From Salpingoeca rosetta (taxonomy: Eukaryota; Protista; Choanoflagellata): DNA of 64,000 bases. The notes beneath the pieces were generated by a model. That model was not told the DNA's origin. It saw only the letters and a list, made by a program, of their open reading frames with translations, and did no database searches. Location of the stretch: the NCBI GenBank assembly GCA_033442325.1, contig JAWQFM010000030.1, positions 746,186 through 810,185 of the forward strand. The letters run 5' to 3'. How positions within the stretch are numbered: the first letter of the stretch is position 1; each line of letters begins with the position of its first letter. A program made the translations under genes and the position numbers. This document shows, piece by piece, positions 30,144 through 52,911 of this stretch.

Positions 30144-30175
30144 GGGTGTGCAGCACCAGTAAACACAAGATCAGA

Positions 30176-30322
30176 AAATTATGTAAGATTTTGCAAATTT
30201 TCGTCAGTAGGGAATTTGATTATGATTTGCTGATATTTATGTAAGATATTGCAAATTTTCGGCAGTAGGGAATTTGATTGTGAGTGGATGAATTTTATGT
30301 AAAATATTGCAAATTTTCTTTA
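30176..30322. repeat. AT-rich ~58-bp tandem repeat (2.5 copies) downstream of pPolB
   Basis: TTATGTAAGAT(T/A)TTGCAAATTTTCG(T/G)CAGTAGGGAATTTGATT is repeated. Confidence 0.85.
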
Positions 30323-30986: not shown

Positions 30987-33929
30987 TCACGTCTTAGCCT
31001 TCTTCGCCTGTGGCTCAGAGGCAGCAAGCTTCTCCAGCAAAGGATTGGGCAGGACAAAGTCAAAGGTAAGCGACACAGAGTACAAGGGGTTCTCTGCGTT
31101 GACGGTGTTGCTGTTGAGGATGCGTCCGGCAAAGTCTGTGAGGAGGATGTCGAGGCTGCGCGTGCGGATGGTGCTGGTCGTGTTGATCACATGCTCTGTG
31201 GGATTGTCTGGCTGGTAGAGGATCTCGTACATCTTGTGGTCGCGCCCCTCCACCACGCGCGAGAAGATGTTGGAGCGCTGCGTGCGGTCATCGATAAACT
31301 CAATCACGCGCGCGGCCTGCCCATTGGAGAGGAAGCTCTGCACTGGGATGTTGCGCAGGTGCACACACATACCTCCCTTAAAGTCAAAGGGCTCGGGGAT
31401 GGCGTTGCTGTCGTAGCTCGTGCCTGAGCTGAACTGCAGCCAAGACACATCCTCTTTGCTGTGCCCGGGGACATAGAAGCCCATCATGCTGTAGAGCTGG
31501 TTCAGGTACAGGTACACGCCCTTGTACTTGTTGCTGCCATCTGCCAGGTGATCGCTCGCGCCGGCAAAGGCCAGCATGTCTGTGCTCGTGTCGGCGTGGA
31601 AGGGCTCATACCCGGGTGGGAGCGGCACCCTGCCCAGCGTGCCCGTGTAGGTGACCAGCGGTGTCGACCCGCGCAGATTCATGGCGTGGTACACAACGGG
31701 CTGCACGGTCGTCACGACATCCCCCAGCTTGCTGTCATAGTGCACCGCAGCATTCAGCGGCGTGGTGCGCGCGCCCGTGTCGTAGGTGTACGTGCCGACG
31801 GGCAAGGCAATGACCACGTTATCCACGCCCGCCTCCTTGGTGAAGCGAATGCGCCATGTGATGCTGTTGGCGTCGGGAAGTGTGGATTCGCTAATGTCGA
31901 GCAGGGCCGCGGGCATGTAGGCGTCGTACCCGGTGGAGGTCCCGCTGCCATTGTCCAAGTAAACCAGCGTGCTTGCGTGCTGCTTGGAGTGGATGGTTTG
32001 TGCTGTGGTCCATGAGAGCTTGTCGGTGACACCACCTGTCTGCACGACATAGGGGAGGGAGCGTGTGGCGAAGGGCTCACCGAGCTGTGTTTGCGCACCG
32101 TGCGAGGCACGCACGGGTAGCAGGTAGGGCTCCGTCACATCGTTTCGGTTCAGCACATCCTGGTACTCACACAGCGCGCGGTGCCACATGGTGCTGCTGA
32201 TGAGCACGTCAAACTCTGCACCCGCGCCCACATGGCTCACGTCAATGTCCTGGCTGCCAGCTGGGTCCACGAAGTAAGACACATCAACGCTGCAGGGGAT
32301 GTAGCTCATGTCGTCCGCTTGCACCAGGGCCGTTTCCCTGGTGTATGCCGACGCCTCGGTGTTTGCAGCAACGTCGCCGGAATCCAACCCAAGCGTCCCG
32401 TGTGATACCAGGCCCGACGCCGTGGTGCTCTTCTTGTAGGTGTTCTGCTTGACCTCCTTCCACACGGGGACCTGAACCGCCGCAGCCGACGCCGGCACCT
32501 CACCCAGCTGCGCAATGTCGTCAAACTCGTTCTGCAGAAACACCATGGGCATGTATTCGTCCTCAAAGGCAATGAGGGTGTCCAATTCACCCACCTCGCC
32601 CACGCCATTGCCGTGCTCATCCTCCCACTCGCTGTTGGCGTTGAATATCACGCTCAGCGCGTACTCAGTATCGTTGACCTTCGTGCACTTTGCCGTGAAA
32701 GTAAACACCTTCTCTGTCATCCCTGTCATGGGCGTGGATAGCGTGAGGGTGGATGCCGTCTTGTCGCGCACAAAGGACATGGGGTCGTTCACGGCACTGT
32801 TCTGCTTGAACATGGCAAGGTCTGCGTTCGTAAACGTCGTCTGCTGGGATGCAATGGATCGCAGGGTCATGCTTGCTCCTCCACTGAGCTTGGTCTGCGT
32901 GCTGTCGAGTTCCGGGTGAACGGTGGCCTCCATCGCAGAGACAAACTGAAAGCCCTCCACGGGCTCAAACACGTTGAGCGCTGCAAAGGGATAGGCTTGC
33001 TTGTGCCCGTACTGCTCCGTGATGGTGTATGCCGTGTCCTTTGCAATGAGACCAATCACCACCATGTAGCGGCTGTTCATGGCGCGCGGGTTCGTGGAGG
33101 GGGTGCTGTCCTGCGTGACGAGGAGCGGCATGCCCGCAGTCAGGCTTGTCGCGTCCCCTGCACCAGCCGTCTCTGGCAGCGGCAGCGTGTTGTAGGCGTT
33201 TGTGGCCGTGGACAACCACGCCAGGTTCAGGGATTCAAAGGCGTCGGTCCAGCTGATGCTGGCGTTCTTGATGTTTCGCGTGAGAGCAATGTCACCATCC
33301 AGCGCCTTGAGCTCCACCCACGCAGTGTCGTCCTCTGTGATAATGTTGTTCCCGCTCGACTTGGCGTAGGTATCGATGTTCGACGCCCGATCGCTGGCAT
33401 CCGTAAACACAGCCAGGCTGTCCGCCACCACAGGATCGCTGATGGTCACCGTACTCGTCGTGGTCGTCATGCTGATCTTGAAGCTGTCGTTGTCCTGCGT
33501 GCTCGTGATGGAGTCTGTGAACACGACGTCAAACTTGACATTCTTGCCCGTGAACAACTCCGACACGGCAAGCTTCTCATTCAGGCTCGTCTCGATGGCG
33601 CTGGCCAGCGTGTCACCGTTGTAGTAGCCCGGCGCCACCTCTCCCTTGAGCACGGTCCCGCTGCTCGTGGTTCCAGCGGTGTCATAGCCAACAGGTGGCG
33701 CATCGTTGCTGTCGTAGTTCACAATGACAGCCCACTTGTTGTTATCCTCCGTCACGGAGTACACCTCCGCAGACACGAGGAATCTCGCGCGCTTGAGTGA
33801 AACGCGGGAGCCCGGCGCGAGCAGGAGCTCCGTCGCAGTTGTGGATGTGAACTGTGATACTGGTCCAAACACACTCCCTCGCGGCTGGGCGAGGCCCGCC
33901 GACATGTTCTCCACCGTCACAAGCGGCAT
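30987..33929 (-). CDS. Minor capsid (penton)-like protein 1 with a large internal insertion
   Basis: N-terminal ELLLAPGSRVSLKRARF..YSVTEDNN..VAPGYY and C-terminal VHLRNIPVQS..YQPDNP..IRTRSLDILLTDFAGRIL..SVSLTFDF resemble PLV/virophage single jelly-roll pentons. Confidence 0.65.
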   Translation of the reverse strand: MPLVTVENMSAGLAQPRGSVFGPVSQFTSTTATELLLAPGSRVSLKRARFLVSAEVYSVTEDNNKWAVIVNYDSNDAPPVGYDTAGTTSSGTVLKGEVAPGYYNGDTLASAIETSLNEKLAVSELFTGKNVKFDVVFTDSITSTQDNDSFKISMTTTTSTVTISDPVVADSLAVFTDASDRASNIDTYAKSSGNNIITEDDTAWVELKALDGDIALTRNIKNASISWTDAFESLNLAWLSTATNAYNTLPLPETAGAGDATSLTAGMPLLVTQDSTPSTNPRAMNSRYMVVIGLIAKDTAYTITEQYGHKQAYPFAALNVFEPVEGFQFVSAMEATVHPELDSTQTKLSGGASMTLRSIASQQTTFTNADLAMFKQNSAVNDPMSFVRDKTASTLTLSTPMTGMTEKVFTFTAKCTKVNDTEYALSVIFNANSEWEDEHGNGVGEVGELDTLIAFEDEYMPMVFLQNEFDDIAQLGEVPASAAAVQVPVWKEVKQNTYKKSTTASGLVSHGTLGLDSGDVAANTEASAYTRETALVQADDMSYIPCSVDVSYFVDPAGSQDIDVSHVGAGAEFDVLISSTMWHRALCEYQDVLNRNDVTEPYLLPVRASHGAQTQLGEPFATRSLPYVVQTGGVTDKLSWTTAQTIHSKQHASTLVYLDNGSGTSTGYDAYMPAALLDISESTLPDANSITWRIRFTKEAGVDNVVIALPVGTYTYDTGARTTPLNAAVHYDSKLGDVVTTVQPVVYHAMNLRGSTPLVTYTGTLGRVPLPPGYEPFHADTSTDMLAFAGASDHLADGSNKYKGVYLYLNQLYSMMGFYVPGHSKEDVSWLQFSSGTSYDSNAIPEPFDFKGGMCVHLRNIPVQSFLSNGQAARVIEFIDDRTQRSNIFSRVVEGRDHKMYEILYQPDNPTEHVINTTSTIRTRSLDILLTDFAGRILNSNTVNAENPLYSVSLTFDFVLPNPLLEKLAASEPQAKKAKT

Positions 33930-35839: not shown

Positions 35840-38236
35840 ATGGCGCACCAACCACTAAGAAAACGATCCAAACATGGTGGCAGGGATGCTGATGCTGCAC
35901 AACTCCCTGCTCCTCCCACGTTTGCAAGCAGCATACGTTCCGCACAACCACAGACAGTCTATGTGGAATGCAATCGTGTCCAATCAGCCAAGGACCTGTT
36001 GGATCCAACGACACGGCTGAACGAGGTCACTATGGAGATGAAGGAAAAGCTACCCATCCGTGCGGGAACCGCTGTTCAGGCAACGCAGGTCACTGCAAAC
36101 AGTCGCGGGTCGGGCGATGTCATCGAGGTCGTCAGGAACATGTCGGTCACAATGCGCATTGGCTACTACGTTGTGCACAAGCCAGTCAATGGCAGCCTCG
36201 TCTACAGCACAGCGCGCTGCTTAAACGGCTTTGAGGGAGGCGGTGTTACCTTCGCCAGAAGCAAGACACACTGCGTACATGTGCAGACGCCAGCAGACAC
36301 GGACCTGGGCTCTAGCACACCCATCTACCTGACCACTCCAGCAGCCAACGTCAGTGGCACTCCACCCGACACAAATGATGGCGGGTCCTTCTACGTCCCG
36401 CTGTTCAGTCAGACCACAGCCAGCCTTGGGTGTGCCAAGCTGCTTCCGCTCATGAATACGCAGCTGGTCAACGGCGAAGCACCAAGCGGGCAGAAGGTGA
36501 TCGGCTACGAGTTTGGCACGGACGGTGTTGGGATTGTGGGAGCAGCGCACAGCAGCGATGACACGCTCATTGCGCCCTACTTCAAGAAGGTCACCCTCAC
36601 CTTGCCCAAGGGTAACTACAGCCCGACAGATATCACATCCATTCTCAATCGCCAACTCAGCAAGGCGAATCCTGTTGTCGTGGAGGACCCGGAGCAACCA
36701 GGCACCACCAGCCACCACCTCACATACCCATATCACACGAGCCTCCGCACCGTGTACCGAGGCACGATGCAGTGCTTCACAGATGAGATTCCGGCCTCTG
36801 TCTCTTCTGTCTATGGGATTTCCAGGGACCCAAACAATGCAGAGGGCAAACCTTTACCAATCAAGCATTGGTATCTTGAGGACACCTTCTCAGCAGGAGG
36901 TACACCGTACCCGTACAGCGATTATGGTGCCAAGTTTATTCAGAAGCCCGTTCGACTGGACAAGGACCACAGCTACTTCATCCCTTGCATCCTCGGCGGA
37001 CTAACGCCCGCTTTCTCCTTCGACACGAACAACAGCCGGTTCACCCTCACGGGACTGCACCAGTCCTTTTCCGAGTCGGACTTTGAGGAGATTGCATACC
37101 CAGACTCCCAGGTGATAGAGTCAAACGGGGTGGAGAAGACAAACAGAATCAGCATTGCTGCACAGGCAGCGCTCGGCGTGGACTACACGCGCGCCAATGG
37201 CGCCTTTGAGAAGCAGGACTACGCCAAGCCAACCCAGGCCGATGGCACAGATGCCATGTGCGTTGTTGGCATGGTAGACCCGAGCATGCCAAAGGCAGGT
37301 GCCATCACCCACTGGAATGGCTGCTTCATCCTCAGCTGGTATGAGAACGAGGAGGAACTCGAGTTCTGGAACGTGCTCGGATTCAGCAACAGCGACGTGG
37401 TGGGGAAAGGCCCGCAGCCAAGTTCACACGCCCCTATCGATGGCACCTACCACTACTACACAGCAAAGGACCTGTTTGATCAGTGCAAGCAGGCGCGAAC
37501 AGACGAACGCATCGACGATGCGCTCTTTGCTGGCAGATACCCCAACACGCTTGGCAATACCATCTATGAGCCGCCATTCCAGCAGACGTTCTCGCTGCAA
37601 CGGGCATTGAGCGATACGCATAACACTGCACCCTCGGGTACAAACCCACCAATTCCCATGTACCGCGGCGACCCTGACGATGACCCTTCCAATTGGTCCA
37701 CCATCACCCTCCAGTCCTACGAGCACTTGTTCAACATGCTTGTGAGCAGCTACTACTGGTGGTTCGCGCCGCCTTTTTTCAAAAAGCAGGGCAGCGCGGA
37801 AAAGTTTGATCCTATGGCAGCCAACGTACCGAGCGCCACGAACACGCGCTTTGTTGTGAGCACAAAGCATGAGCCTATTCGCGCATCCAGCCTTCCTCGC
37901 AAGCTGCAGTTCCCAGACATGCTACTTGTCTCGGATTTGCCCATCTACCCATCGCAGCGCCACTTTCTCAGCTCTGGGCAGCCATGCAACGTTCTGGCAA
38001 CCCTGAGCAAGACCTATGACACAGGTGATTACTTCACCAGCAACTCCCCTGGACCGCAGTTTACCATCAACGAGGAAACGTCCCTGTCTCATTTACATTT
38101 GAGCCTGATCAACCCCGACGGATCCATACCACAGAACCTGAATGGTTCCATTTTCATCCGTCTACGCTTTGTTATCCCACCACCAAGTACGCCTACGACT
38201 CAGCAACAGCAAGCAGAGCAACAAGATCAGTCATGA
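35840..38236 (+). CDS. Minor capsid (penton)-like protein 2 with a large internal insertion
   Basis: N-terminal TVYVECNR..LPIRAGTAVQ, internal TLTLPKGNYSPTDITSILN, and C-terminal LLVSDLP..NVLATLSK..FTINEETSLSHLHLSLINPDGS..IFIRLRF; the pattern parallels the first penton-like ORF. Confidence 0.6.
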   Translation: MAHQPLRKRSKHGGRDADAAQLPAPPTFASSIRSAQPQTVYVECNRVQSAKDLLDPTTRLNEVTMEMKEKLPIRAGTAVQATQVTANSRGSGDVIEVVRNMSVTMRIGYYVVHKPVNGSLVYSTARCLNGFEGGGVTFARSKTHCVHVQTPADTDLGSSTPIYLTTPAANVSGTPPDTNDGGSFYVPLFSQTTASLGCAKLLPLMNTQLVNGEAPSGQKVIGYEFGTDGVGIVGAAHSSDDTLIAPYFKKVTLTLPKGNYSPTDITSILNRQLSKANPVVVEDPEQPGTTSHHLTYPYHTSLRTVYRGTMQCFTDEIPASVSSVYGISRDPNNAEGKPLPIKHWYLEDTFSAGGTPYPYSDYGAKFIQKPVRLDKDHSYFIPCILGGLTPAFSFDTNNSRFTLTGLHQSFSESDFEEIAYPDSQVIESNGVEKTNRISIAAQAALGVDYTRANGAFEKQDYAKPTQADGTDAMCVVGMVDPSMPKAGAITHWNGCFILSWYENEEELEFWNVLGFSNSDVVGKGPQPSSHAPIDGTYHYYTAKDLFDQCKQARTDERIDDALFAGRYPNTLGNTIYEPPFQQTFSLQRALSDTHNTAPSGTNPPIPMYRGDPDDDPSNWSTITLQSYEHLFNMLVSSYYWWFAPPFFKKQGSAEKFDPMAANVPSATNTRFVVSTKHEPIRASSLPRKLQFPDMLLVSDLPIYPSQRHFLSSGQPCNVLATLSKTYDTGDYFTSNSPGPQFTINEETSLSHLHLSLINPDGSIPQNLNGSIFIRLRFVIPPPSTPTTQQQQAEQQDQS

Positions 38237-38802
38237 CAGATGCCAGCGATCCCGCGCCAAAACGTTGCAGATCCATGCACACGCAACTGACATGGTTTGA
38301 TGCTGAGCACATCCAGGCAGCAGAGCTCTTGGAAAAGCTGCAGGAAGAGCGGGGCGGTCAGCTCGAACTGGAATGGCGCAGTTCTGGCGCCAGAGAATGT
38401 ACTGTCACAGTGCATCTTCGACGTGGAGACGCAGTGCCAAAGCTGCATCGCAGCGAGCTCCGTGGCAGTGCAACGGGAATTCAGGGCTGCGTTGAAGTCA
38501 AGTGGAACAACCAGACATACTACTGCGGGCGTGGCACAACGACCACGCTCACGGACAGGGACGACGTTGTGTTTCAGTTTGCTTCCCTACCAATCCACGA
38601 CATTGCACACAATGCCATGTCTGCTGTTGTTCTCATTGCTCAGAACATGGAGGTGGAGGTGTGTGTGTATGACTTTGAGCGACATGCTCCTGAGTCTTTT
38701 GTGCTTGCACGTCGTTGCCTTTGCGTGGCTGCCCTCTTCCGTACACCGCGTCGGTTCATGGGGGATGCTGTGCATCCACTTGACAACGACGACGAGTGGA
38801 CA

Positions 38803-38834
<32 letters not shown>

Positions 38835-38973
38835 CATGCAGATCACTCGCCAATCCAGCATGTGCTTTGAGGAAGACAATGTCGTGTTTGAAGAGTCGAT
38901 TCATGATGTCGACGGATTTGTGTTTTCCTTTAATGTACGCGCAAATCCAACACACATGTGCACACAAGAGTAG
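38233..38973 (+). CDS. Viral hypothetical protein with a poly-Asp tract
   Basis: 246-aa ORF overlapping the upstream stop (ATGA). Confidence 0.65.
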
Positions 38974-38980
38974 ATGGTCA

Positions 38981-40528
38981 TCAGAGAACACGTGAACGAG
39001 AAGAAGCAAGGATGAGAGACTCGGCACGTCCAATCCACACCACAACCTGGTTCTCAAAGCTGGCACCACCCGTGTTTGAGGGTGGCGCACGCGCCTTGTG
39101 CCGAACCAGAATGGGCTGTCGCGAGATGTTGGACTCAAGAATGAACGGTACACCCACTGGTGAGAACAGTCCCATCCACCGACCATTCTTGCCCTCTGTG
39201 GAGCTACTCGATGCTGTGCCATCATGGGTCTTGCCATCGTAGATGATGCTGGGAATGTAGTAGTTGTCCATGAGGCGTGATGTTTGAAGCTGAAGGTCAA
39301 CGCCGTCGTACAGCTGCTTCTCAAAGTAGTTGACGTTGTTGATGTTGAGATTGAGCTCCGCAAAGGGTGGGGCGAGCTCGTAAGCCCCAAGCCGGTTGTT
39401 GCCAGAGGCTGCTGAGGACGACTTGCGCCGCATGAAGAGAAGCTCAGAGAGGATGCTGTTGTCTGCACGAATTGGTACATCCTTGGTCGAGGAATCGTTG
39501 CTGGCGGAGATGGGAAGCTGCTTGGCAATGTACTGCGTGTACATGTACCTGCTTGAACCACTCATCACCTGCTGATTCACAGCGTCCAGAATGGGCTTGG
39601 GGAGTGTCAGGAAGTCGCACATGAGAAATGGGTCCTCAATCGAGTAGGACGCAATGTTTGCGTAGGACACGAGGCTCTTCTTCACGGCGGCGCTTGGATC
39701 GCTCGGTACGCGGGCGGCGGTTTGTGCGAGTGTGCCACCAACCGTGAGCAGGGAAGCCGCGTCCTGGTTCAGCACGAGCTCAATGCTCAGCTGTTCCGCG
39801 GCCATGGCAGGGTAGCGGCGAATGCTGTTGAACAGGGACGGGCACAGGGACATCATCGGGATGGTGACATGCGACTGCACACTGCGTCCAAAGGGCTGGT
39901 AGACGTACTCCATCTTCCTGAGCCAGGTCGTGTTGCTGCCGCTGTCGGTGCCGGATGTGCGGCCATGTGGTGCCGCTGCAAAGTTCTCCATGGCAAACGG
40001 GTTGGAGCCGAGCGTAACCTTGCCATAGCAGTCTGCAGAGTAGGCTGTGCCGCTCAGGTCCAGGTAGCTTCGCACAAACTGTTGCTGGTTAATGGTCAGC
40101 TCAGGATAGTGTGTCGCCATCCACCATGCAAAGTAGTCGATGCGCTGAACCTCCTGCTGCCCAATGCGTACAATGATGCTGTCAATGACACCTGCGCCAC
40201 CAACAAGGGCTGGGAAGGCCTGGCTCCAAAAGTCCTTGGACTGGTTGCTGGGTAGGGTCACGTTGATTTGGAAGGCGAGGTAGCTGCCCTCAATATCCAG
40301 GATGGATGTGCGTGGGACGCGGAACAGGATCCTGCGGCTTGTCTGCGTCTCTGCGCTGATAATCTGAGAGTCCGCGTAGACGGCGTCATTGGAGTTGATC
40401 ATGGGTGGGGCCAGGCGATCGTGGATGCCCATGCCATCATCTGTGGCATCCTGCGCTGGCTCCTGCTCCGTCACCACGTCATCGACCGGCTCCACAGCCA
40501 GTCCCGTCGTTGTAGTGTCGTCGCTCAT
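38981..40528 (-). CDS. Major capsid protein-like (double jelly-roll) paralog C
   Basis: ILFRVPRTSILDIEGSYLAFQINV..GGAGVIDSIIVRIGQQEVQRID..LSIELVLN matches the N-terminal pattern of PLV/virophage MCPs. Confidence 0.7.
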   Translation of the reverse strand: MSDDTTTTGLAVEPVDDVVTEQEPAQDATDDGMGIHDRLAPPMINSNDAVYADSQIISAETQTSRRILFRVPRTSILDIEGSYLAFQINVTLPSNQSKDFWSQAFPALVGGAGVIDSIIVRIGQQEVQRIDYFAWWMATHYPELTINQQQFVRSYLDLSGTAYSADCYGKVTLGSNPFAMENFAAAPHGRTSGTDSGSNTTWLRKMEYVYQPFGRSVQSHVTIPMMSLCPSLFNSIRRYPAMAAEQLSIELVLNQDAASLLTVGGTLAQTAARVPSDPSAAVKKSLVSYANIASYSIEDPFLMCDFLTLPKPILDAVNQQVMSGSSRYMYTQYIAKQLPISASNDSSTKDVPIRADNSILSELLFMRRKSSSAASGNNRLGAYELAPPFAELNLNINNVNYFEKQLYDGVDLQLQTSRLMDNYYIPSIIYDGKTHDGTASSSSTEGKNGRWMGLFSPVGVPFILESNISRQPILVRHKARAPPSNTGGASFENQVVVWIGRAESLILASSRSRVL

Positions 40529-40624
40529 CTCGTTCTCTTGCTTCTCGCTCTTTTGTGAACGTGGCTTTGCTTCTTTTAGGTGTTGAGGAAAATGCATGCT
40601 TGTTGCTTTATTACTTGAGCACAC

Positions 40625-42010
40625 TCAGAGCACTGCAGAACGAACAAAGCCATCAGCTGTAGGTGTGACGGCACGCGTGCCAAGGAAGAACACATGCATG
40701 ATGGCAGGCTCGGTAGGTGTTGTGAACGCAGTCTTGTAGGATCCAGTCGCAATGGGGGCTCCCGTGTAAGCCGGCGTGGACGTGGAGGTGTCGCTCAGAT
40801 AGAAGTCAATCTGTGGGCGGTTCGTGCTGTTCATGTTCGGTCCCGAGGTGTACGTGTCAATCGGGAGACCAAAGATCCCAACGCGCTGATCGATGGTCGT
40901 GCTCGCTGCAACAATCTCCCACGGACCAAGTGCTTCAAACCCAGCCATCTTCAACTGAATCGGGCTGATTTGATCAAAGTAGGACACACGCTCGCCGTTG
41001 ATCATGAACTGCCCGCGGTCCAGGCTGAAGTTGTCCAGTGATTGTGGATCCGTCTTACCCTGTGTCCTGCCCATGCTCAGGAAGTTGAAGAGCACCGTAT
41101 TGACTGCGGGTAAGCCTGGCGCAAAGCTTGTGCTGTTGAAGCTGTTGTTGATGCTGGTCATGGAGTCTGAGAAGGACTGGTAAACCTGAGTACCATCCGG
41201 TGCCATGCCACGCATGAGGGCGGCAGATGGCACGGCATTGCCCGGTGCACTCAGATCCATGTTGGCGGGTGGTGCCATGTACACGAGCGTGTACTCCAGG
41301 GTGACATCGGAAATCTCAAAGTTGACGTTGCTGATGCTCTGCTCAGCTGTAATGGCGGTGCTGGCGTTTGGTGCAAACAGGAAGAGCGCGTTGTTGTTCA
41401 GCTCCAGCTGCACGCGAATGCCGCCATGAATTCGAAGACCGAGGTCTTGCTGCCCTTTGCTGATGCCCGTCTCCAGTTGAAAGCAGAAGCGTCGCTCGTT
41501 CAGGTTGTTGATCTCATTCACATAGATCAGGCTGTCATTGGTCTGCTTGCCCGTCACCTTTGTTGGGTCCGCAAGTACACCGAGCATGCCCGCTTCAGCT
41601 TGGCGCTGGCTGCAGATGGCATTGCTGCTGCTCGTTGCGTTGAGAAGGTGCGTGGCCAGTCGCGGGTAGTTCTGCACCCGCTCGAGGACCTGGTTGCTCC
41701 CTGTTGTCACGACCACGCTCTTGATCATTCCGTGAAGACCACAGCTTGGGGAGAGAAACACGTCCTCGTAAGAGTTGCCGCCAGCGGGACCCGTGCCGTA
41801 GCTGCACTTGATCTTGCCACGCAGGCGAAAGCCGTACTCAGCAGAGACAAATCCATCTGTGTCTGGAAGCACAAAGTCCAGCTGGTAGATGCTCTTGTTC
41901 GCAGAGTAGGAGCCACCATCGCCGTTTGCCGGGGAGAGGAATACCTGCTGTGCCTGCCGCCCGCCCGGGGTGAGTTGTGTCGTGCCCTGCATCATACCTC
42001 GGCGCGACAT
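40625..42010 (-). CDS. Major capsid protein-like paralog B
   Basis: QLDFVLPDTDGFV..FRLRGKI..GLHGMIKSVVVTTGSNQVLERVQNYPRL..GGIRVQLELN..FEISDVTLEY. Confidence 0.7.
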   Translation of the reverse strand: MSRRGMMQGTTQLTPGGRQAQQVFLSPANGDGGSYSANKSIYQLDFVLPDTDGFVSAEYGFRLRGKIKCSYGTGPAGGNSYEDVFLSPSCGLHGMIKSVVVTTGSNQVLERVQNYPRLATHLLNATSSSNAICSQRQAEAGMLGVLADPTKVTGKQTNDSLIYVNEINNLNERRFCFQLETGISKGQQDLGLRIHGGIRVQLELNNNALFLFAPNASTAITAEQSISNVNFEISDVTLEYTLVYMAPPANMDLSAPGNAVPSAALMRGMAPDGTQVYQSFSDSMTSINNSFNSTSFAPGLPAVNTVLFNFLSMGRTQGKTDPQSLDNFSLDRGQFMINGERVSYFDQISPIQLKMAGFEALGPWEIVAASTTIDQRVGIFGLPIDTYTSGPNMNSTNRPQIDFYLSDTSTSTPAYTGAPIATGSYKTAFTTPTEPAIMHVFFLGTRAVTPTADGFVRSAVL

Positions 42011-42101
42011 GGTTGCTGGTTGCGATTGCAGTCTCTTTTTCTCTTTGTCTATGTTACTCACTCAATGTGGGGATAGGGAAAATGAATTTATTACACACGA
42101 C

Positions 42102-44162
42102 TCACTCAGAGACAACGACGCCAGCAGCGTTGCTCACAGTGACACGACGCTGGTGGGCACAGAAGCAGTGCATGATGAAGGACTCGGGAGTGACCTTTGT
42201 GAAACGCACGCGCAGATTCGGGTTGGCTGTGAGCAGGTCTGCAAAGCCACCATGAGCGGAAAGGCGACGTGGGATCACAAGCATGCTGGATTGGTTGCGC
42301 AGATCCTTGACGGGGAGGCCAATGTTGGCCAAGGCCTTTGCTTGCTCCTGTGCGTTGACACCTGCAGTTGCCAGTAGGCCTTGCGGGCACTTGCTCAGGG
42401 ACTCCACAGACACTGGGTGACTCGGCTGCTGGCGTTGATTGATTTGCCACTGCCACTCCTTGAAGCCATGCTCGGACCCGCCACCTTTGGAGGTCACTCG
42501 GTACGAGAGATCCTTGGGATCCGCAGTGTCAATCGGGGTCTTGAGGATGTCTGCAAACTTGACAGAGTTGAGCCACAGCGACTGGTTGTACTCTGGAATT
42601 GCAAACAGGGAAAACGCCCTTCGCTGCGTGAAGCTTGGGAGGTTGATGGTGTAGTCATTGACACCTGCTGGGATGGGCTGCGCCACATGCGTGTAGGTCA
42701 TGATGTCAAAGAAGGTTCCGTCGGCGCTCTGCATGGCCTCCTGCATCGCAGCCTCCATGTCCAGGCTGGGGGTGACGGTGCGGAAGCGGAAGTTGATCCG
42801 CTGTATCTCGTAGCTGAAGCTGTCCGTCTTGGTGTCCCAGCCTGCCTGTTCATGGCGACGGAACCAGTTGTCTGCATTGGCCAGGTGCCAGCGCATGCGA
42901 AGACCACCGAGGTGGTTCACGTAGATGGTGTTGCCCTGCGGATGCATGAACATTGCAGAAGGAATCTCGTGCATGACAGGGACAGTGCAGCTGTAGCTGA
43001 TGTTGGTGATGGGTCGAATCACATAGTAGGTGCCTGCGCTCTTGTCCAGCTCCGACGATGATGCGGTTGTGAAAGCCTTGTCAAGGCCATCAGCGTAGGG
43101 GCCATAGACAGTCTTGGTTCCGTCCTTGAGAATCAGGCCAAAGATTTTGTTAGTCCCGGATGCTGGAGAATCACCCGCTCGCACATCGGTTGCGAGTCCG
43201 CAGTATCCAACAAGCTTGCGGTCGCTCGACTTGGCGGGCTTGGTTCCGCTTGCAGAGCTGGGATCGTCGGTGCCCTGTGGCTGCACGGACCAGACCTCAA
43301 ACACATTGCCGACAGCGTAGAGGTAGGGCTTGATGTTGGAAGGCAGGTTGGCGTATGCACTGCCGCTGTTGACGCTGCTATGCACAAACTGGAAGAAGCC
43401 GTTCTTTGGCGAGCTGCCGTCCTCAACAAACTTGAGAAAGTTCTTGTAGTTGCACCAGGAATCCTCGAGCGGATCACGGTCAATGGTGAGCGCGGTAATG
43501 GGGGAGGCTGGGTTGAGAAGACCTTTCATGATGGCTGCATCCTCAATGTTGCTTCGGCTGGGCTGGTAGAGCTCGCGGTGTGCTGGCTTGACGAGGCCAA
43601 ACTCGTTCACGTCGACGGTGGCAGATGTGAACAGGCTGTCGTTCTGCTTGGCAATGGGGTCCTTGCAGTAGAGGTGCTTCATCGTGTTGATGAGGTCCAG
43701 GCGCTGGGTTTCCTCAATGACCTGTCCCGTGTCCGTTCGTGTGACAATCTCGTCGAAGAGGGTGACGGCACCAGCTGGATTTGGCAGACGCAGAGAGGAG
43801 CAGAAGTTGAGCCCCGCTTGGTTGGCATTGACAAAGGCGGTGTCGTTCTTGAGGTTGCTTGTGCCCGTTGTGGCTGCCATCTCACAGCCGTATTGAAGAT
43901 CCATCATGACAGCGGTTGTCTTCTTGTCTGGGGATGTAGCAACAGTCTTTCCGTTGGCACTGGAGCTGAGCACAAGGTCGTACTCCATCTTGCTGTAGGC
44001 AGGGTCAACAGCTGGTGTACTCGAACCGCTGAGGTGCAGGTCAAGATACTGACCCGGCTTGTAGGTGTCATGATCGGCTGGTGTAGTGACTGTGGCATTG
44101 CTCACGGGTGTGAGGCTGGCCACGGTGCTATCCCACAGACTCTCGTTCTCAACTGGCTCCAT
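42102..44162 (-). CDS. Major capsid protein-like paralog A with an internal insertion
   Basis: YKPGQYLDLHL..VDPAYSKMEYDLVL..GAVTLFDEIVTRTDTGQVIEETQRLD..GGLRMRWHLA..YEIQRINFRF. Confidence 0.65.
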   Translation of the reverse strand: MEPVENESLWDSTVASLTPVSNATVTTPADHDTYKPGQYLDLHLSGSSTPAVDPAYSKMEYDLVLSSSANGKTVATSPDKKTTAVMMDLQYGCEMAATTGTSNLKNDTAFVNANQAGLNFCSSLRLPNPAGAVTLFDEIVTRTDTGQVIEETQRLDLINTMKHLYCKDPIAKQNDSLFTSATVDVNEFGLVKPAHRELYQPSRSNIEDAAIMKGLLNPASPITALTIDRDPLEDSWCNYKNFLKFVEDGSSPKNGFFQFVHSSVNSGSAYANLPSNIKPYLYAVGNVFEVWSVQPQGTDDPSSASGTKPAKSSDRKLVGYCGLATDVRAGDSPASGTNKIFGLILKDGTKTVYGPYADGLDKAFTTASSSELDKSAGTYYVIRPITNISYSCTVPVMHEIPSAMFMHPQGNTIYVNHLGGLRMRWHLANADNWFRRHEQAGWDTKTDSFSYEIQRINFRFRTVTPSLDMEAAMQEAMQSADGTFFDIMTYTHVAQPIPAGVNDYTINLPSFTQRRAFSLFAIPEYNQSLWLNSVKFADILKTPIDTADPKDLSYRVTSKGGGSEHGFKEWQWQINQRQQPSHPVSVESLSKCPQGLLATAGVNAQEQAKALANIGLPVKDLRNQSSMLVIPRRLSAHGGFADLLTANPNLRVRFTKVTPESFIMHCFCAHQRRVTVSNAAGVVVSE

Positions 44163-44250
44163 ACTGGTGGTAGAACTGCTTTGCCTTGTTTGGTGCTTGT
44201 GGCGGTTTCGTGGACAGAGGTAAAATGAGCATGCGCTGTGTTGTTTACTG

Positions 44251-44496
44251 TCAAAAGTGAACAACAGATGGACCTGAAGCAGATGGGCCGCTTGCTACAG
44301 GTGCGACATAGGAACCAGGTTGTGATTCGTGCTTGTGGTGGTGTGGGCGCAATTCATTCCCAAGTTCAAAGATACCAGAGAGCATTGGTCCCAGAACAGG
44401 AATGCCAGCCACAACTTCACCCGTGATTTTCAGGCCACGCCCTGTTTCCTCATCTTGCTTTGTCTCTGGGCCTTTGATAGGTTCGCGGTCAGACAT
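44251..44496 (-). CDS. Small viral protein with an amphipathic/hydrophobic segment
   Basis: 81-aa ORF containing VVAGIPVLGPMLSGIFELG; fits tightly between neighbouring genes. Confidence 0.5.
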   Translation of the reverse strand: MSDREPIKGPETKQDEETGRGLKITGEVVAGIPVLGPMLSGIFELGNELRPHHHKHESQPGSYVAPVASGPSASGPSVVHF

Positions 44497-44507
44497 GACT
44501 GTTGGTT

Positions 44508-45260
44508 CTAGAGTGCTAGAACGGCGCTTGCAAGTTCGCCAAGACCTTCAGCTGCTCCGCTTTCGAGCCCGTCGCCTACTGCTTCCCCAGTCGGCGCCAA
44601 GTCTTGGAGTTCAATGTCGGTTGGGTACTCTGGCTGAACGTCTGCTGCTTGTTGTTCCTGTTCGCCTTCGTCCATGGATGTGGGCTCGTTCTGTGTCTGT
44701 GATAAATCAGACATTTCAATGCTCTCCGGTGGCTCATGCTGAGTGTGGTTTGTGATGGGCTGCTCCATACCGTTTGTCATGCGCTGCCATGTGTTGCGCA
44801 CGCCATCAATGAGAGAGGGGCCGTGCTCGCCGTAGATCTCAGAGGGAATGCTGAATGTAGGGTTCTCTGGATCTCCAATGTCAAAGCCTGTGTTGTCACG
44901 CATGACGTCACGCGCGGATGTGCGCCCGATGTCACTTTGCACGGAATCCAGTGCCTCTCTGCTGTTGCGGAAGGTGGAGGATACGCGATCGCCAATGTAA
45001 TCACCAGCTTTGCGCACGCCCTTGCCGACTGCTCTGAATCCCTTGCCAACCCAGTCTGCAAGCAGTTCTTCCTGTGTCTTTCCAGTCATAGCCTTTGTAA
45101 GCTCATTGGCAAACATGTGCGCAACGGGGTTCTGCTGTTGCTCGATGAGGTTGCCAATGCGCTCCTGCGTGCGTTGCTGTAAGCCAGTTAGGTAGTCGTG
45201 TGTCCTCTGCTGGACCGCCTGCTGGTACAGCTGCGCCTGCTGCTCTGTTGATCGCGACAT
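44508..45260 (-). CDS. Viral hypothetical protein (Gln-rich N-terminus, amphipathic WVGKGFRAVGKGVRKAG helix, acidic tail)
   Basis: ORF of about 250 aa at the head of the capsid gene cluster. Confidence 0.65.
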   Translation of the reverse strand: MSRSTEQQAQLYQQAVQQRTHDYLTGLQQRTQERIGNLIEQQQNPVAHMFANELTKAMTGKTQEELLADWVGKGFRAVGKGVRKAGDYIGDRVSSTFRNSREALDSVQSDIGRTSARDVMRDNTGFDIGDPENPTFSIPSEIYGEHGPSLIDGVRNTWQRMTNGMEQPITNHTQHEPPESIEMSDLSQTQNEPTSMDEGEQEQQAADVQPEYPTDIELQDLAPTGEAVGDGLESGAAEGLGELASAVLAL

Positions 45261-45327
45261 GTTGGTGTGTGCGGTTGGTTGAGAAAAATGTACTGTCGTG
45301 TGCATTTATTTCTGCATGTGAAGAAAG

Positions 45328-46676
45328 ATGGCGCGTCGCCAGCAAGACGATGTGTATGATGATGATGGGGAGTTTGATGATGATGATGACGATGATGATT
45401 TCCAGGACAATTATCGTCCAACGATTGTGCGCCGGGATGCCCGCTCCGTATGGCAAGAGCTTTCCCTGGTTCGCCCTGAAAGAGTGCCAGCAGCACGAGA
45501 CCCACCGACATCGGTGACATCCGGCGGGGTTCGCTCTGATGTGAACGTGGATGCGCTTCCCAATGTGCGCAGGATGGACACGCGTCGAGATCCAAACGCT
45601 CCTGCAAGTTCAAGTTCCAGCAGCAGAAGGCGACGTGTTCAGGCTGCATCAGCATCAAGATCAGCATCAAGACCAGCAGCAAGGTCAGCATCAAGATCAG
45701 CATCAAGAGCACACAGAGGGAGCGGGCGAAGAGGAGCAGGGCGAATGCCAGGACCAGGGCGAAGTCGAAGGCTAAGCGCAGGTGAAGTACGGTTGCTGGA
45801 GGAGAGAGATCCCAATACCAGCTATGTTGATCGTTTCCCTTTGAACAGAGTAGGAGGTGTGAGGTTCGGGAGAAGGGGACTGGGCATGGGTCCTGGAGCT
45901 CGGATCGCAGCTGATATGCCGTACAGCTTGACACCACCACCACGGTTTTCAATTCGAGTGCCTCAGCCACCGATGACGAACGTAAACCCTGAGCAGCAAA
46001 TCGATCCAATCGTTCTGAATGCATTGGGGCAGGACGATGGTGATTTTGATATGTATGTGAGGGAACGCAATCCGAGGACGAACCGAATGCTTGCAAGACC
46101 CGTGCGGAACATTAACAGCATGGATGAATCGTCGAGTGAGATTGTGGCGCAGTGGCAACGACGACTGCTTATTCAGCTGAGCAAGTGCTTGCCCGTGTAT
46201 GAGACGGTGAACGACGCGAATGGAAATCCTGCATACTACATCAAGCATTTGGCACCGCTTGTGTATGATGAGCAGGGAAACCTGAAGGTGGTGAAAGGCA
46301 TTGCAAAAGGTGTGAATCCTACGTTCGTGAGCAATGGTGTGTCTGGTCAAGTGTTTTCTGGTCTGTATTGGCAGTTCAGGCGTGAGCAGCGTAGACGGGA
46401 TGGGTCGCAGGTGGAGTTTGTTGGTTCGCACCTGTGCCATCGTGGAAACACGAACCCGTTGCTGGTGTATGAGACAAGGGGTGATGAACATCAGTTGTAT
46501 GAGTGGGTTGTGCCTTGTGTGAATCCGGCGCATTTGTGTGGAGAGACGAGCACGTTGAATACGTCACGCATTGGTTGTCCAGGCATGGCCATTGGTTGCA
46601 GTCATACCCCAAAGTGTTTGCGTCCTGCTGCTGAATCGTCCATGCGTTCATACCACTACAGCTTTGGCTTTGACGC

Positions 46677-46680
<4 letters not shown>
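45328..46680 (+). CDS. His-Cys box (His-Me finger, I-PpoI family) homing endonuclease with a long disordered N-terminus
   Basis: C-terminal GSHLCH..[insert]..CVNPAHLCGETSTLNTSRIGCPG..GCSHTPKCL parallels the I-PpoI motif SHLCH..CxNPxHLCxE...N..R..CPG...C.H...CL. Confidence 0.9.

Positions 46681-46716
<36 letters not shown>
46680..46716. repeat. (GT)n microsatellite directly after the endonuclease stop, followed by AATAAA
   Basis: About 18 GT units, then ggAATAAAc at about 46721. Confidence 0.9.
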
Positions 46717-46719
<3 letters not shown>

Positions 46720-46808
46720 GAATAAACAAGTGAGGGATATGATCATTTACACGATGGTATAGATATAACCAAGGCAACGAGGAATATCCCCTGGTTGCCA
46801 GAGCCGCC

Positions 46809-47452
46809 GGTAACTTTTCGGACACCTCTAGGTTGAAGCTGTCAACAGGCGCAGTGCAGAATGGGAGCTTAGACGCACGAGTGCGTTGTTCACTCTTATC
46901 CGCCGCGACTAAAGGATCGATAGGCCATGCTTTCACAGTTTGTATTCATCCTGAAAATCACAAAATCAAGTGAGCTTTTGTCCTTTTACTCCACATGAGA
47001 TTTCCGTTCTCATTGAGCTCACCTTGGGACACCTGCGTTATCGTTTTACAGATGTGCCGCCCCAGCCAAACTCCCCACCTGACCTCGTCTTGAAAGCGGG
47101 TCGGGATCGGCATAACATGAAGCGCAAGAAGCACTCCACGCTGCCCTCCCTTTCTCCAGAAATGGTGCACATGTGTGATCGGGTGCGCACAGCTCACACA
47201 AGAAATGCGCGCTACGCACACCACAATCACCCACACCAGCCCCGTGTCATTCAATAAGCAAAAAAACGACCAGAGTAGTGGTATTTCAAGGCCGCAAGCA
47301 CAATTTAATGCATTTGCTCCCACCTATGCTACACCTCTCTAACCCTAACACGGTCGGACTAGAGTCAAGCTCTAGCGGGTCTTCTTTCCCCGCTGATTGT
47401 GCCAAGTCCGTTCCCTTGGCTGCGGTTTCGCTAGAGCGTAGATAGGGACAGT

Positions 47453-47484
<32 letters not shown>

Positions 47485-48723
47485 CAGTTAAATGACGAGG
47501 CATTTGGCTACCTTAAGAAAGTCATAGTTACTTCCGCCGTTGATCCCGCGCTTGGCTTGAATTTCTTCACGTTGACATTCTGAGCACTGGGCAGAAATCA
47601 CATTGCGTCTACACCGTCGCAACAGCCTATCCTCGCAATGCTTTGTTTTAAGTAAACAGTCGGATTCCCCTTGTCCGTACCAGTTCAAGATCGGTTGCTA
47701 AAAAATAGTGTGCGCAGAATGTAGAGGTGCAAGAACGGCATGCAAGCACACCCCCTTTCACCCCCACACCCACACACACAATCAACCTCTTGAGCCAATC
47801 CTTATCGCGAGCTTACGGATCTATTTTGCCGACTTCCCTTACCTACATTCGTCTATCAAACTAGAGGCTCTTCACCTTGGAGACCTGCTGCGGTTATCAG
47901 TACGGCCAACCACGCCCACATGCAGCGGAGAAAATAGATTAGCACAAGTGCTTCTCTTCTTCCCCCCACACTGCTACCATTCACACCCTCGGATTTTCAT
48001 GGACCGCCGGGAACGCGCCGGACACCACAACAAAAAGAGGTCAGTGGTGCTTTGCCGAGCCTCTCACCCCATCTCCAGCCAAACTGATTCCAGGGTCAGA
48101 GAATGCGACGAGGAAGGTTGAAGAGCGCAGAATAAACTAACACTCTTCCCCCTACTCCCCCCCACAATGCAGCTCGTTAAAAAGAAAAGAAAACTCTTTC
48201 CAGGGCCCCCGGCAGCGTCTCCGAGTTTGTACGCGTTGCCGCTGCTCTATCAAAACATTCTTTGTGGCGTGCGTTGGTCCAGGAATCTTAACCTGGTTCC
48301 CTTTCGATGGACTGGGGTATTCAACACGTGTGCAAGCATGGCGATAATATCACCACCACCCACACACACGCAACAACTCCCCACTTGACACAGGACTGCC
48401 CCATCTCTTAGGACCGACTCACCCGTGGCCAACTGCTGTTCCCACGGAACCTTGCTCCACTTCAGTCTTCAAAGCTCTCATTTGAATCGTTGCTACTGTC
48501 ACCAAGATCTGCACTGGAGGCCCCTCCACCCAGGCTCACGCCACAGGCTTCCACGGCAAAAAGATTGCTCTCACGCAAACACCTCCACGCCCACCTACTT
48601 GTGTGTGGCTACATGTAGTTTTGAGACGCAACAAGCACGAATGCTCGCTTCGCTCGCTCTCTTCCACACACAGCGGAGTATAGGTACGACGCTTGAGCGC
48701 CATCCATTTTCAGGGCTAGTTGA

Positions 48724-48757
<34 letters not shown>

Positions 48758-48999
48758 ATTCCGACTTCCATGGCCACCGTCCTGCTGTCTATATCAACCA
48801 ACACCTTTTGTGGGTTCTCATGAGCGTCGATTCCGGCACCCTAACTCCGCGTTCGGTTCATCCCGCATCGCCAGTTCTGCTTACCAAAAATGGCCCACTT
48901 GAGACTCGGTTATTCAGCATTGCCCGCTTCATAAACAAAGAAAGCGCGCCGCCTTACCCATTTAAAGTTTGAGAATAGGTTGAGGGAAGTGGCTCCCCC

Positions 49000-49030
<31 letters not shown>

Positions 49031-49986
49031 AACTAACCAAAAGATCATAAAATAAGTCTCAGCTATCCTGAGGGAAACTTCGGTGGGAACCAGCTACTAG
49101 ATGGTTCGATGAGTCTTTCGCCCCTATACCCAAGTTCGACGACAGATTTGCACGTCATGATCGCTACGAGCCTCCACCAGAGTTTCCTCTGGCTTCGCCC
49201 TACTCAGGCATAGTTCACCATCTATCGGGTCCTAACATCTGCGCTAAAACGCAAATCCTTCAGCGGAGGAGGGTGGAGCCACCGCACACCCCTTTCCCCT
49301 CCCCCAATCCAGATCGGTCGATGGTGCTGCGAGTGCTGCTGTTAAAAGTGTACTCACGCACACTTCCCAACACTGCATCCCACCTCTCACTTTCATTGCG
49401 CGCCCTAGCTTCATGCTCGCTAAAACACTCGCGCACATGTTAGACTCCTTGGTCCGTGTTTCAAGACGGGCCGTTTGCAGCCCTGTCGCCAGCATCTCCC
49501 CGGTGGTGTGCGCCAAGCGGCAAGCGCAACATTCCCAACACTGCCCGCACACACTCTGTCAACAGCACAAGAGAACGAGTCTCTCATCCCAAAACAAGAG
49601 TCTGCGCAACACAATGCCGAAAACAGCACCCATGCCAAAGACCACATAACAAAGCCACCGCATCGATAATTTCCTCAGTCCCACGTGCGACAGAAACATA
49701 AAAAAGCAGATGCGCCACGCACAAGGGCGCCCTCGCATCGCCGTCTCTCACACACAAAACTCATGCTGGCAGACACGCCCCGCGAGTGCAGGCAGCGCAG
49801 CACACAACAACAGCAACGCAGCGGCGCATATGTGCAACAAGTGCACACAATACACCCCCCGCACCGTCATCACACACCACACCAAAAACCCTGATCACAA
49901 GGCGCGCCCAGTCTCTGCTAGCTGCAAGCGATTCTCTGTCAACGGTTTCACGTACTGTTTAACTCTCTTTTCAAAGTGCTTTTCAT

Positions 49987-50020
<34 letters not shown>

Positions 50021-50338
50021 GTGCCAGTATTTAGCCTTGGATGCAGTTTACCACCCGGCTTTGGGCTGCATTCCCAAACAACCCGACTCAAGAGAATAAA
50101 CGGACCACACACCGCACATCAGCGCAAATAAACTAGCACCAGCGGGACTCTCACCCTCTCCGGTGTCCTCTTCCAAGGAAACTCGGTGCTGCGCCAAACA
50201 ACAATGCACAACAAAAGCTGTGCACCATCACAAAGACATGCGACGGCCCGCATCCCATAAAGACTACAACTCGCCACAAAAAAGAAGCTTGTGGAGATTC
50301 CAATGCTTGAGCTCTTCCCGCTTCACTCGCCGTTACTG

Positions 50339-50372
<34 letters not shown>

Positions 50373-50419
50373 GTGATATGCTTAAGTTCAGGGGGTACCC
50401 TTGCCTGACCTGAGGTCAA
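46809..50419 (-). rRNA. 28S (LSU) rRNA gene, 3'-truncated in domain V
   Basis: 5' TTGACCTCAGGTCAGG..CTGAACTTAAGCATATC; conserved GACCCGTCTTGAAACACGGACCAAGGAG-like and CTATGACTTTCTTAAGGTAGCC blocks. Homology stops after AGAGGTGTCCGAAAAGTTACC; no A-loop or sarcin-ricin loop was seen. Confidence 0.95.
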
Positions 50420-51302
50420 CAATGAGAATGAGTAGAGGAGGGGAAGGGGTTTGAGAGGGTGAAAAAGTGGAGTGGAGTGGTGTGGATGGATGCAGTGGTC
50501 TGTGCGCATACACTGCAACAAGTGCAGTGCTATGCACACAAACAGTGCTCCGTCCACCACTATTCCAGCTTTCCTTTCTCTCTCACACATGTTCCCTCTC
50601 TTCTTCATCAGTGTTTTTGCTCACATGACCAGTGTCACAAAAGCCACATAAAGATGCAAGCACACAAGTGCACATGCCTCTTCACACACACACACAGCAT
50701 ACACACCCTGCAGAACAACGATGCCAGTTGACACATCGCTCCACAGCTTGGTGTATCCTGCTGCATATGCAGATACAGCATGCGCGTGCTTGCCGTGGTC
50801 TCGCAACAACGGCACCCACACAGCGACAGTGAGTGATGACAACAGTATGAGAATAGAAGTGGGATGTGTGTGTGTGTGAATCACATCAACTGCAACAACA
50901 CAACGCACAAGGCATCGTATCATCGTGCAATGCAATCCACATGCTCACACACACAAACACCCACTCCTTCTTCGTCACAGTCACTATCACCATCATCATC
51001 GCAATGGAGTCGTAAGCTCTCCTCTTCAGAGTCCAGTCTCACACAATACACACACACAGCAAAAATGTGTGTGTGCACCGCATCGACTAACACCCCATGG
51101 CCACCAACAATGCACAGTGCAATAATGGGATACGAGTACATGATGCATGGGCGCTTCCTCATACTGCTACACAACAAGCATCACCACACCAACAAAGGTG
51201 CGCTGCTGCTGCTGCTGCATAGTTGCAGTAATCAAATACACCCACACAAACACTCACACACTCGTAAGCACACAAAAACGCATTGTCAATGAGATTGAGT
51301 GG

Positions 51303-51486
51303 CGACACTCAGGCAGACATGCCCGCACGCACAGACACGCACACAATGGCGCATGCCCACACACACAGGCGCAATGTGCGTTCGAAGATTCAATGATTCA
51401 CGGAATTCTGCAATTCACACTACATTTCGCGTCTTGCCACGTTCTTCATCGATGCACGAGCCAAGAGATCCACCGTTGAAAGTTGT
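51303..51486 (-). rRNA. 5.8S rRNA
   Basis: ACAACTTTCAACGGTGGATCTCTTGGCTCGTGCATCGATGAAGAACG..GAATTGCAGAATTCCGTGAATCATTGAATCTTCGAACGCA. Confidence 0.95.
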
Positions 51487-52135: not shown

Positions 52136-52192
<57 letters not shown>

Positions 52193-52285
52193 AATGATCA
52201 AGTTTGACCAGGTTCTCAGCAAAAGATGACATGGGCAGCTGTTGCCAGCGCCCACGCGCCAATCCCGAGGCCTCACTAAACCATT

Positions 52286-52331
<46 letters not shown>

Positions 52332-52864: not shown

Positions 52865-52911
<47 letters not shown>

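Follow-up and report, generated by a model that had tools for sequence, protein, structure and literature searches.

An intact Polinton-like virus with three divergent, predicted capsid genes, flanked by a telomere and a truncated 28S rRNA gene, probably in a choanoflagellate

In a 64,000-nt stretch of DNA (contig JAWQFM010000030.1, positions 746,186 to 810,185 of the forward strand; hereafter, the window), we identified an intact Polinton-like virus (PLV) of about 28 kb (~18,500-46,800) that encodes three predicted major capsid proteins (MCPs) and very probably belongs to the Trimcap group of PLVs. The element lies between a telomere and a truncated 28S ribosomal RNA (rRNA) gene, its terminal gene encodes a His-Cys box endonuclease, and its host is probably a choanoflagellate. 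We lean, by a small measure, toward the view that this virus was captured at the chromosome end through a cut made in the ribosomal DNA (rDNA) by its own nuclease, a step to which, taken by itself, we give somewhat less than an even chance. The triplet arrangement of the capsid genes and the idea of a heterotrimeric capsomer are already known, because the Trimcap papers describe both, and the present element extends that known group. The interest lies in the probable holozoan host and in the setting of telomere, broken 28S gene, and nuclease, which was absent from an earlier, sequence-only reading of this DNA and was not found in print in the literature searched here throughout (PMC open subset and bioRxiv, with the cited papers represented by the accessible parts of their text).

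Results

The element is 93% coding and contains no (CA)n tracts in 28,181 nt, compared with 30 in 17,753 nt and 17 in 9,770 nt of flanking DNA. Read from the host side along the minus strand, the order is spacer, 18S, 5.8S, 28S, virus, and telomere. The 18S (52135-54230) and 5.8S (51303-51484) rRNA genes belong to the same minus-strand rDNA unit as the broken 28S gene and are transcribed towards the virus, and the 28S gene (46804-50418, minus strand) breaks off at 46804, immediately ahead of the peptidyl-transferase center's GAUAAC motif; GGATAAC is absent from the rDNA of the window. By what we take to be the E. coli numbering, the break is 3 nt 5' of the L2449 site, to which we presume I-SceI to be linked; our literature search found nothing on that link. 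In sequencing run X18, the loose ends of 22 contigs show intact 28S copies that continue normally past the break. Between the nuclease gene and the break lies a linker (46681-46803, plus strand) with a (GT)18 tract, an AATAAA signal at 46723, and 87 nt of non-rDNA sequence. Decayed 28S sequence was considered for these 87 nt and rejected, given that 296 of 1878 control windows score equally.

At the far end of the virus, we found an inverted 135-nt copy (18340-18474, plus strand) of the 28S stretch just upstream of the break, with 100 nt identical to, and 93% identity over 137 nt with, the region 46975-47105. Thus, 28S sequence touches both ends of the element. The telomere tract (17853-18217, plus strand) begins the contig and consists of 56 CCCTAA units and a T run. 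Besides the 28S piece, no terminal repeats were detected at the element ends, and hairpins at the termini fell short of significance (z -0.7 to -1.7). Four degenerate CCCCTAA-type units at ~18510-18540 differ from the host 6-mer. The whole segment 18211-18540, which comprises a telomere-side T8 run, 122 nt unmatched in the window, the inverted 28S piece, and these four units, could represent layered end healing, with an abortive first telomere or viral terminal repeats. Herpesviruses use terminal repeats of this kind.

The surrounding rDNA has several features of its own. Its upstream spacer is present in two inverted, 85%-identical copies (13833-17745 and 56230-60509) that end at contig edges, and an N gap (17753-17852) adjoins the telomere inside the scaffold. 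Because the contig to the left of this gap ends in the 85%-identical inverted spacer copy, the scaffold join is probably artificial; rDNA at several chromosome ends is suggested. The rRNA genes (46804-54230) are divergent and resemble those of a rapidly evolving lineage; their expansion segments are long, and a conserved helix bears one or more compensatory changes.

The terminal gene of the element (45328-46680, plus strand), antisense to the rRNA, encodes a 450-aa His-Cys box (His-Me) endonuclease, identified by a PF05551 match (E 9e-5, below the curated cut-off), a match to I-PpoI (E 9e-4), an Atlas feature match of 0.94, and the motif itself. The box has two zinc sites and the active-site His and Asn of a His-Cys homing endonuclease, and keeps the equivalents of H98, C100, C105, H110, N119, and C125, the catalytic and zinc residues of I-PpoI being those named in PMC8395846; the N-terminal half is acidic and rich in Arg and Ser, and the nuclease domain occupies about residues 231-450. 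The ORF (open reading frame) is intact, starts 22 nt from the next viral start, and ends ~120 nt from the 28S break. An AATAAA signal follows its stop codon by ~40 nt, a spacing shared with six other element genes (7 of 17). Those nuclear His-Cys nucleases that have been characterized cleave rDNA where introns insert (PMC3679873), and L2449 is among the insertion sites of nuclear group I introns (PMC8395846, PMC3679873).

The capsid gene stretch is present in sequencing reads at 0.99 of its words in 17 runs, 14 of which may be the source of the assembly, and at ~0.55 in two more (seven studies, one organism label). Contigs from four of 24 runs (X5, X10, X13, and X18) were compared with the region 36000-47400. 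In both X10 and X13, a single unbranched contig carries the capsid genes together with the nuclease gene, and in X5 a 132-nt contig covers the junction (46730-46825). The depth of this X5 contig is 123, versus 45-62 for the virus contigs, an excess that may reflect inflation at the GT tract or the presence of the sequence after the break at more than one place.

Run X18 was taken by guess as RNA-type, no run being annotated as RNA. It yielded minus-strand RNA over 42165-46640, with a spliced part antisense to the nuclease gene and a 3081-nt contig over 42165-45245, which are counted as separate pieces from this one run. The spliced RNA lacks five introns (46607-46462, 46431-46282, 46192-46015, 45754-45602, and 45505-45245), all five skips having GT/GC-AG ends, compared with 1.5% per joint by chance. 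X18 contigs cover capsid gene a and most of b, and the blank over 36000-40570, including capsid gene c, carries no weight as evidence. The antisense spliced RNA has the same orientation as the rRNA transcripts, and either read-through from the broken rDNA or a local promoter would be a compatible source. Such RNA across the nuclease gene could keep the nuclease quiet.

The three MCP genes are tandem, uninterrupted ORFs on the minus strand: a (42102-44162, 686 aa), b (40625-42010, 461 aa), and c (38981-40597, 538 aa). The length of c follows from its first ATG; because its orthologs begin at Met24 (40528), the protein is probably 515 aa long, with its start at 40528. The sequence-only reading had described this tandem triplet as sharing five motifs, and regular expressions indeed matched 14 of the 15 motif places in the right order across the three proteins, the single miss being D...S.L.(F/Y), which is not found in b. 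The three genes proved as divergent as that reading had held: BLASTP among a, b, and c gave no match at E<=1, and a shallow profile-profile comparison was not significant (hhalign E 0.025-0.72). Nevertheless, a profile of 32 b-family sequences, built without P0040 (a false hit on immunoglobulin repeats) and the fragment P0034, scored 30.4 bits against a and 16.1 bits against c. Because these scores exceed those of shuffled controls (100 each; maxima of 3.4 bits for a and 2.2 bits for c) and of the other 14 element ORFs (none >1.4 bits), the three proteins are homologous beyond chance, as judged from sequence at the profile level only. By hhalign, the same profile matched a and c at E 0.0013 and 0.012, with low probability. 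At two positions in capsid gene a, 43858 and 43957, all four mapped runs differ from the assembly, both changes being non-synonymous; because all four disagree with it, these are probably assembly errors or a strain difference.

A double jelly-roll fold is predicted for a and c. Their AlphaFold2 models, built from 4- and 5-row alignments, contain two beta-rich domains each and are of low confidence, with a predicted local distance difference test (pLDDT) score of 45.9 and a predicted template modeling score (pTM) of 0.41 for a, and 42.9 and 0.36, respectively, for c. Among the Foldseek matches to the PDB that were listed for these models, all are double jelly-roll capsid proteins, for example, those of EhV-201, Sputnik, mavirus, PBCV-1, an iridovirus, faustovirus, and PRD1 (best E 9.5e-7 for a and 6.2e-8 for c; template modeling score, TM, about 0.2). 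With VIA-align, the top match of a was p72 of African swine fever virus (Z 9.6, root mean square deviation 9.0, 289 residues aligned) and that of c a PBCV-1 capsid chain (Z 9.8, deviation 3.5, 151 aligned). For b, the assignment comes from profile homology and from Atlas feature matches to viral clusters at 0.97-0.98; in two of these clusters, a minority of members have capsid Pfam annotations (DJR-like, 10%; Capsid_N, 24%). Sequence searches of Pfam and PHROGs with a, b, and c, and of the PDB with the b profile, returned nothing useful, and none of 28 distant homologs searched matches a capsid family. Taken together, these results support the identification of a, b, and c as major capsid proteins that the sequence-only reading had made, by predicted fold for a and c and by sequence for b; the structural check that it had proposed favored double jelly-rolls for a and c on low-confidence models. 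Within its first jelly roll, capsid protein a has an additional segment of ~150-180 residues that separates two of the motifs, is the most variable part among orthologs, and is likely to form a surface tower.

Close relatives, besides the window's own proteins, numbered five for b, three for a, and four for c, with 48-78% identity to the window at similar levels across the three. Because contigs of the same three sizes (6,842, 26,121, and 24,376 nt) recur in the searches with a, b, and c, we read them as three further genomes with the full capsid triplet, which makes at least three other contigs on which orthologs of a, b, and c stand together. A scan of viral contigs also recovered IMG/VR contig L002, which holds a distant b relative and three large tandem ORFs (517, 481, and 468 aa) scoring 27.1, 300, and 9.0 bits with the capsid profiles; it is classed as triple-capsid by the present analysis only. 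A weak GIY-YIG nuclease gene (E 0.02) is located between two of its capsid genes (5146-5724 of L002). Another contig, L001, was dropped as a relative, its match being to an unrelated P-loop protein. Six of the eight viral-contig scans were without a match, and both metagenome scans were empty. Like a Trimcap virus, the element encodes three distinct, highly divergent MCPs in one genome and an A32-like packaging ATPase related to that of L002, and we assign it to this group with high confidence. PLVs with three capsid genes were noted in 2015 (Yutin, PMC4642659) and named Trimcap in 2021 (Bellas & Sommaruga, PMC7805220). A 2026 preprint divides the group into A and B, with two pentons noted for several of the B viruses, and gives marine stramenopiles as the hosts (10.64898/2026.06.19.733378). 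Trimcap viruses make up over 50% of PLV populations in one time series (10.64898/2026.05.28.728513) and group as a clade in another preprint (10.64898/2026.10.13.758929).

The host is probably a choanoflagellate, a link that the sequence-only reading had drawn and that became likely here, through indirect signs: the telomere, the flanking genes, and one cluster of relatives. The flanks hold the TTAGGG telomere and intron-rich, CA-rich genes, in which weak TNFR-like and ephrin-receptor-like cysteine repeats were detected (E 0.004 and 0.009). One of the 30 clusters that were looked up contains fragments labeled as the choanoflagellate Bicosta minor that are 95% identical to a distant b relative. 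A choanoflagellate genome paper describes TTAGGG telomeres, with six ends that look newly formed (PMC4054682). In a survey from 2023, a single capsid gene is listed for Monosiga brevicollis and, in the accessible part, none for the other choanoflagellate assembly (PMC10120064), and a giant-virus screen of both assemblies reports nothing in the text available (PMC11244446). Our literature search found no Trimcap virus in a choanoflagellate. At the left edge of the window (1-1400), the reading frame changes within a host gene that has cysteine-rich TNFR-like repeats, probably through sequencing errors.

In addition to the capsid and nuclease genes, the element encodes an A32-like packaging ATPase (19540-20388, plus strand, 282 aa) with the Walker A motif GTSMSGKT and a phmmer match to the L002 ATPase at E 4.7e-17, without a Pfam match, and a protein-primed family B DNA polymerase (24498-30143, plus strand, 1881 aa; PF03175, E 2e-18; PHROG DNA polymerase, E 3e-42). 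Two ORFs are candidate penton-like (minor capsid) proteins, one of 980 aa (30987-33929, minus strand) and one of 798 aa (35840-38236, plus strand); neither matches Pfam, PHROGs, or PDB sequences, and BLASTP between them is not significant (E 2.1). The ATPase would package the viral DNA, the polymerase would copy it, and the two penton-like proteins would fill the vertices of the capsid. Upstream of the capsid genes, a 265-aa ORF (44508-45305, minus strand) weakly matches the ORF in the same position of L002 (phmmer E 0.007). No integrase was detected among 19 ORFs with Pfam and PHROGs or among 14 ORFs with NCBIfam, and no maturation protease in Pfam, PHROGs, or NCBIfam. A 361-aa ORF (22379-23464) with tandem LPLPTGAATETTL-type repeats is fiber- or spike-like and has a weak PHROG match (E 0.002). 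Between the polymerase gene and a penton-like gene, an AT-rich non-coding region (30150-30430) with three imperfect ~50-nt repeats is a possible origin or terminator.

Discussion

The capture that we narrowly favor would have begun with the virus's own His-Cys nuclease cutting a subtelomeric 28S gene near the L2449 site. Given that no integrase was detected, the linear viral DNA would have been joined to the side of the break facing the centromere, and the other viral end would have been healed by filler DNA, namely, the inverted 28S piece, and a new telomere. Taken separately, the proposition that the virus-borne nuclease made the break has, in our estimate, somewhat less than an even chance. 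A homing virus, that is, an integrase-free choanoflagellate Trimcap lineage that domesticated a group I intron homing endonuclease and enters the 28S peptidyl-transferase center site-specifically, appears rather unlikely. We found no report of a PLV integrating at rDNA by means of a nuclease.

Several observations weigh against this reconstruction. The correspondence between the break and the L2449 site was noticed after the fact. Myxomycete introns at L2449 are without a detectable protein gene (PMC3679873), and no His-Cys nuclease targeting L2449 was found in the literature searched. The GC content at third codon positions (GC3) is 0.49 in the nuclease gene versus 0.66-0.79 in the core genes. 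The join of nuclease and 28S is supported, short of independent proof, because the GT tract between virus and rDNA is crossed by no listed contig of the four runs and the X5 junction contig includes only 22 nt of 28S sequence, under the 31-nt rule; furthermore, X5 may be the source of the assembly, and the read comparison covers the right junction only. A divergent integrase may be present among the unannotated ORFs. As for the identity of the virus and its host, the capsid models cover a and c and are of low confidence, with TM values to capsid proteins of only ~0.2; the penton-like ORFs were assigned by a C-terminal pattern only; and the Bicosta link is distant (15.5 bits), in a record that could include prey or virus DNA.

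The nuclease might, alternatively, be ordinary cargo, the Trimcap DNA having been captured at a spontaneous subtelomeric rDNA break and tolerated at a safe-harbor chromosome end. We give this explanation a real, if clearly smaller, weight because nuclease cargo, chromosome-end viruses, rRNA pieces in such viruses, and non-rDNA roles of His-Me nucleases are all known. HNH and GIY nucleases are cargo in Halocafeteria elements, where viruses occupy 13 chromosome ends without a nuclease mechanism in the accessible text (10.64898/2026.07.28.741278), and the weak GIY-YIG gene of L002 is of the same kind; rRNA fragments in PLVs have been reported, again without such a mechanism in the part available (PMC12220804), and His-Me nucleases also serve non-rDNA ends, as in KolobokP (PMC9587614). 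That no His-Cys nuclease was found reported at L2449 agrees with a cargo role. However, this explanation needs two coincidences, one being that the nuclease adjoins the break and the other that the break lies 3 nt from a homing site, on the numbering we assume. Both adjacency and site would be accounted for if the nuclease were what is left of a group I intron that the host had at L2449, comparable to the Didymium L2066 antisense gene, to which the virus was fused later. The antisense orientation and AATAAA signal match published antisense intron genes (PMC9548176), and the lower GC3 and the GT tract at the element edge, the only host-like one, fit a host origin. Yet the rRNA exon fails to reach the insertion site by 3 nt and is missing the required U, Rfam detected no group I core, and the 450-aa protein compares with 188-247 aa for intron nucleases (PMC8395846, PMC9548176). 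Moreover, the nuclease start is 22 nt from a viral start, and the gene shares an unbranched contig with the capsid genes in X10 and X13; we therefore regard an intron remnant as quite improbable.

Least probable of all is that the virus-rDNA join is an assembly error at the GT tract, with the virus elsewhere in the genome or existing as a linear episome. The unbridged tract, the junction depth of 123 in X5 against 45-62 for the virus contigs, and the telomere inside the scaffold beside an N gap would be expected from such an error. Against it, a polyadenylation signal is present on the far side of the GT tract with the customary spacing, the other end has a further 28S piece as well as a telomere, and the sequence is nearly whole in 17 runs under one organism label, of which 14 may be the source.

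With regard to the capsid, one copy each of a, b, and c would form a heterotrimeric, pseudo-hexameric capsomer to which a adds the surface tower. We consider this arrangement reasonably likely by analogy, its basis being the published Trimcap B model, which makes a heterotrimer plausible. The sequence-only reading had already proposed it, and the proposal is not new because a 2026 preprint has modeled one, with an interface pTM (ipTM) of 0.89 versus 0.19-0.25 for homotrimers (10.64898/2026.06.19.733378, section 7). Separate homotrimers of a, b, and c at different capsid positions, or alternative particles, seem a minority prospect. They have an analogy in the minor capsid paralogs of giant viruses, the three proteins differ greatly, including in the large extra segment of a, and each can homotrimerize in modeling according to the same preprint (10.64898/2026.06.19.733378). 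Nonetheless, the published homotrimer interfaces reach only the low values just given, and the number three is fixed both across the Trimcap group (PMC7805220) and in the relatives found here. A prediction of the b and c pair scored 0.01, with alignments unused and without controls, and weighs neither way.

So far, integrated copies have linked Trimcap viruses to stramenopile hosts only, and the heterotrimer is known only as a model, as far as the accessible literature goes. If the present reading is correct, an intact, partly transcribed choanoflagellate copy would widen the range of Trimcap hosts to include the animals' sister group and, provided that the host is in culture, would allow capsid composition and the life cycle to be tested. 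If the nuclease cuts 28S at the break, this would be DNA-virus integration without an integrase, which we did not find in print. Should the homing-virus version hold, an intact, transcribed copy in an organism that has been sequenced repeatedly would, for the first time, open a way to actual Trimcap particles.

Comparison with known systems

The nuclease resembles I-PpoI and I-DsqI in its full His-Cys box with active-site His and Asn, and, like nuclear intron His-Cys genes, it is antisense to rRNA with an AATAAA signal, at an rDNA break near an intron site. In contrast to the I-PpoI and I-DsqI genes, it is located at the end of a virus, without an intron, and is about twice as long; the locus is without a ribozyme core, the rRNA exon is not restorable, and the target is putative. 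The chromosome-end location, host rRNA piece, and nuclease cargo are shared with Halocafeteria virophages and PLVs and with rRNA-bearing PLVs, whereas the Halocafeteria elements have integrases and terminal repeats, and in their accessible text neither 10.64898/2026.07.28.741278 nor PMC12220804 links a nuclease to an rDNA break. Mavericks/Polintons sensu stricto share the polymerase alone, with no integrase, protease, or terminal inverted repeats detected here. A PLV-type capsid gene in a choanoflagellate genome has a precedent in MMPC_36 of Monosiga brevicollis (PMC10120064 supplement), which, unlike the window, is one 389-aa gene only. The element resembles the Trimcap/group X PLVs in the three divergent capsid genes, the packaging ATPase, and the 28-kb size, and, through the two candidate penton-like genes, several Trimcap B members. 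Unlike the endogenous Trimcap copies, reported in the accessible text from stramenopiles only, the present one lies where a telomere and rDNA meet, probably in a choanoflagellate, has a His-Cys nuclease and no detected integrase, and encodes a 686-aa capsid protein a with a large extra segment.

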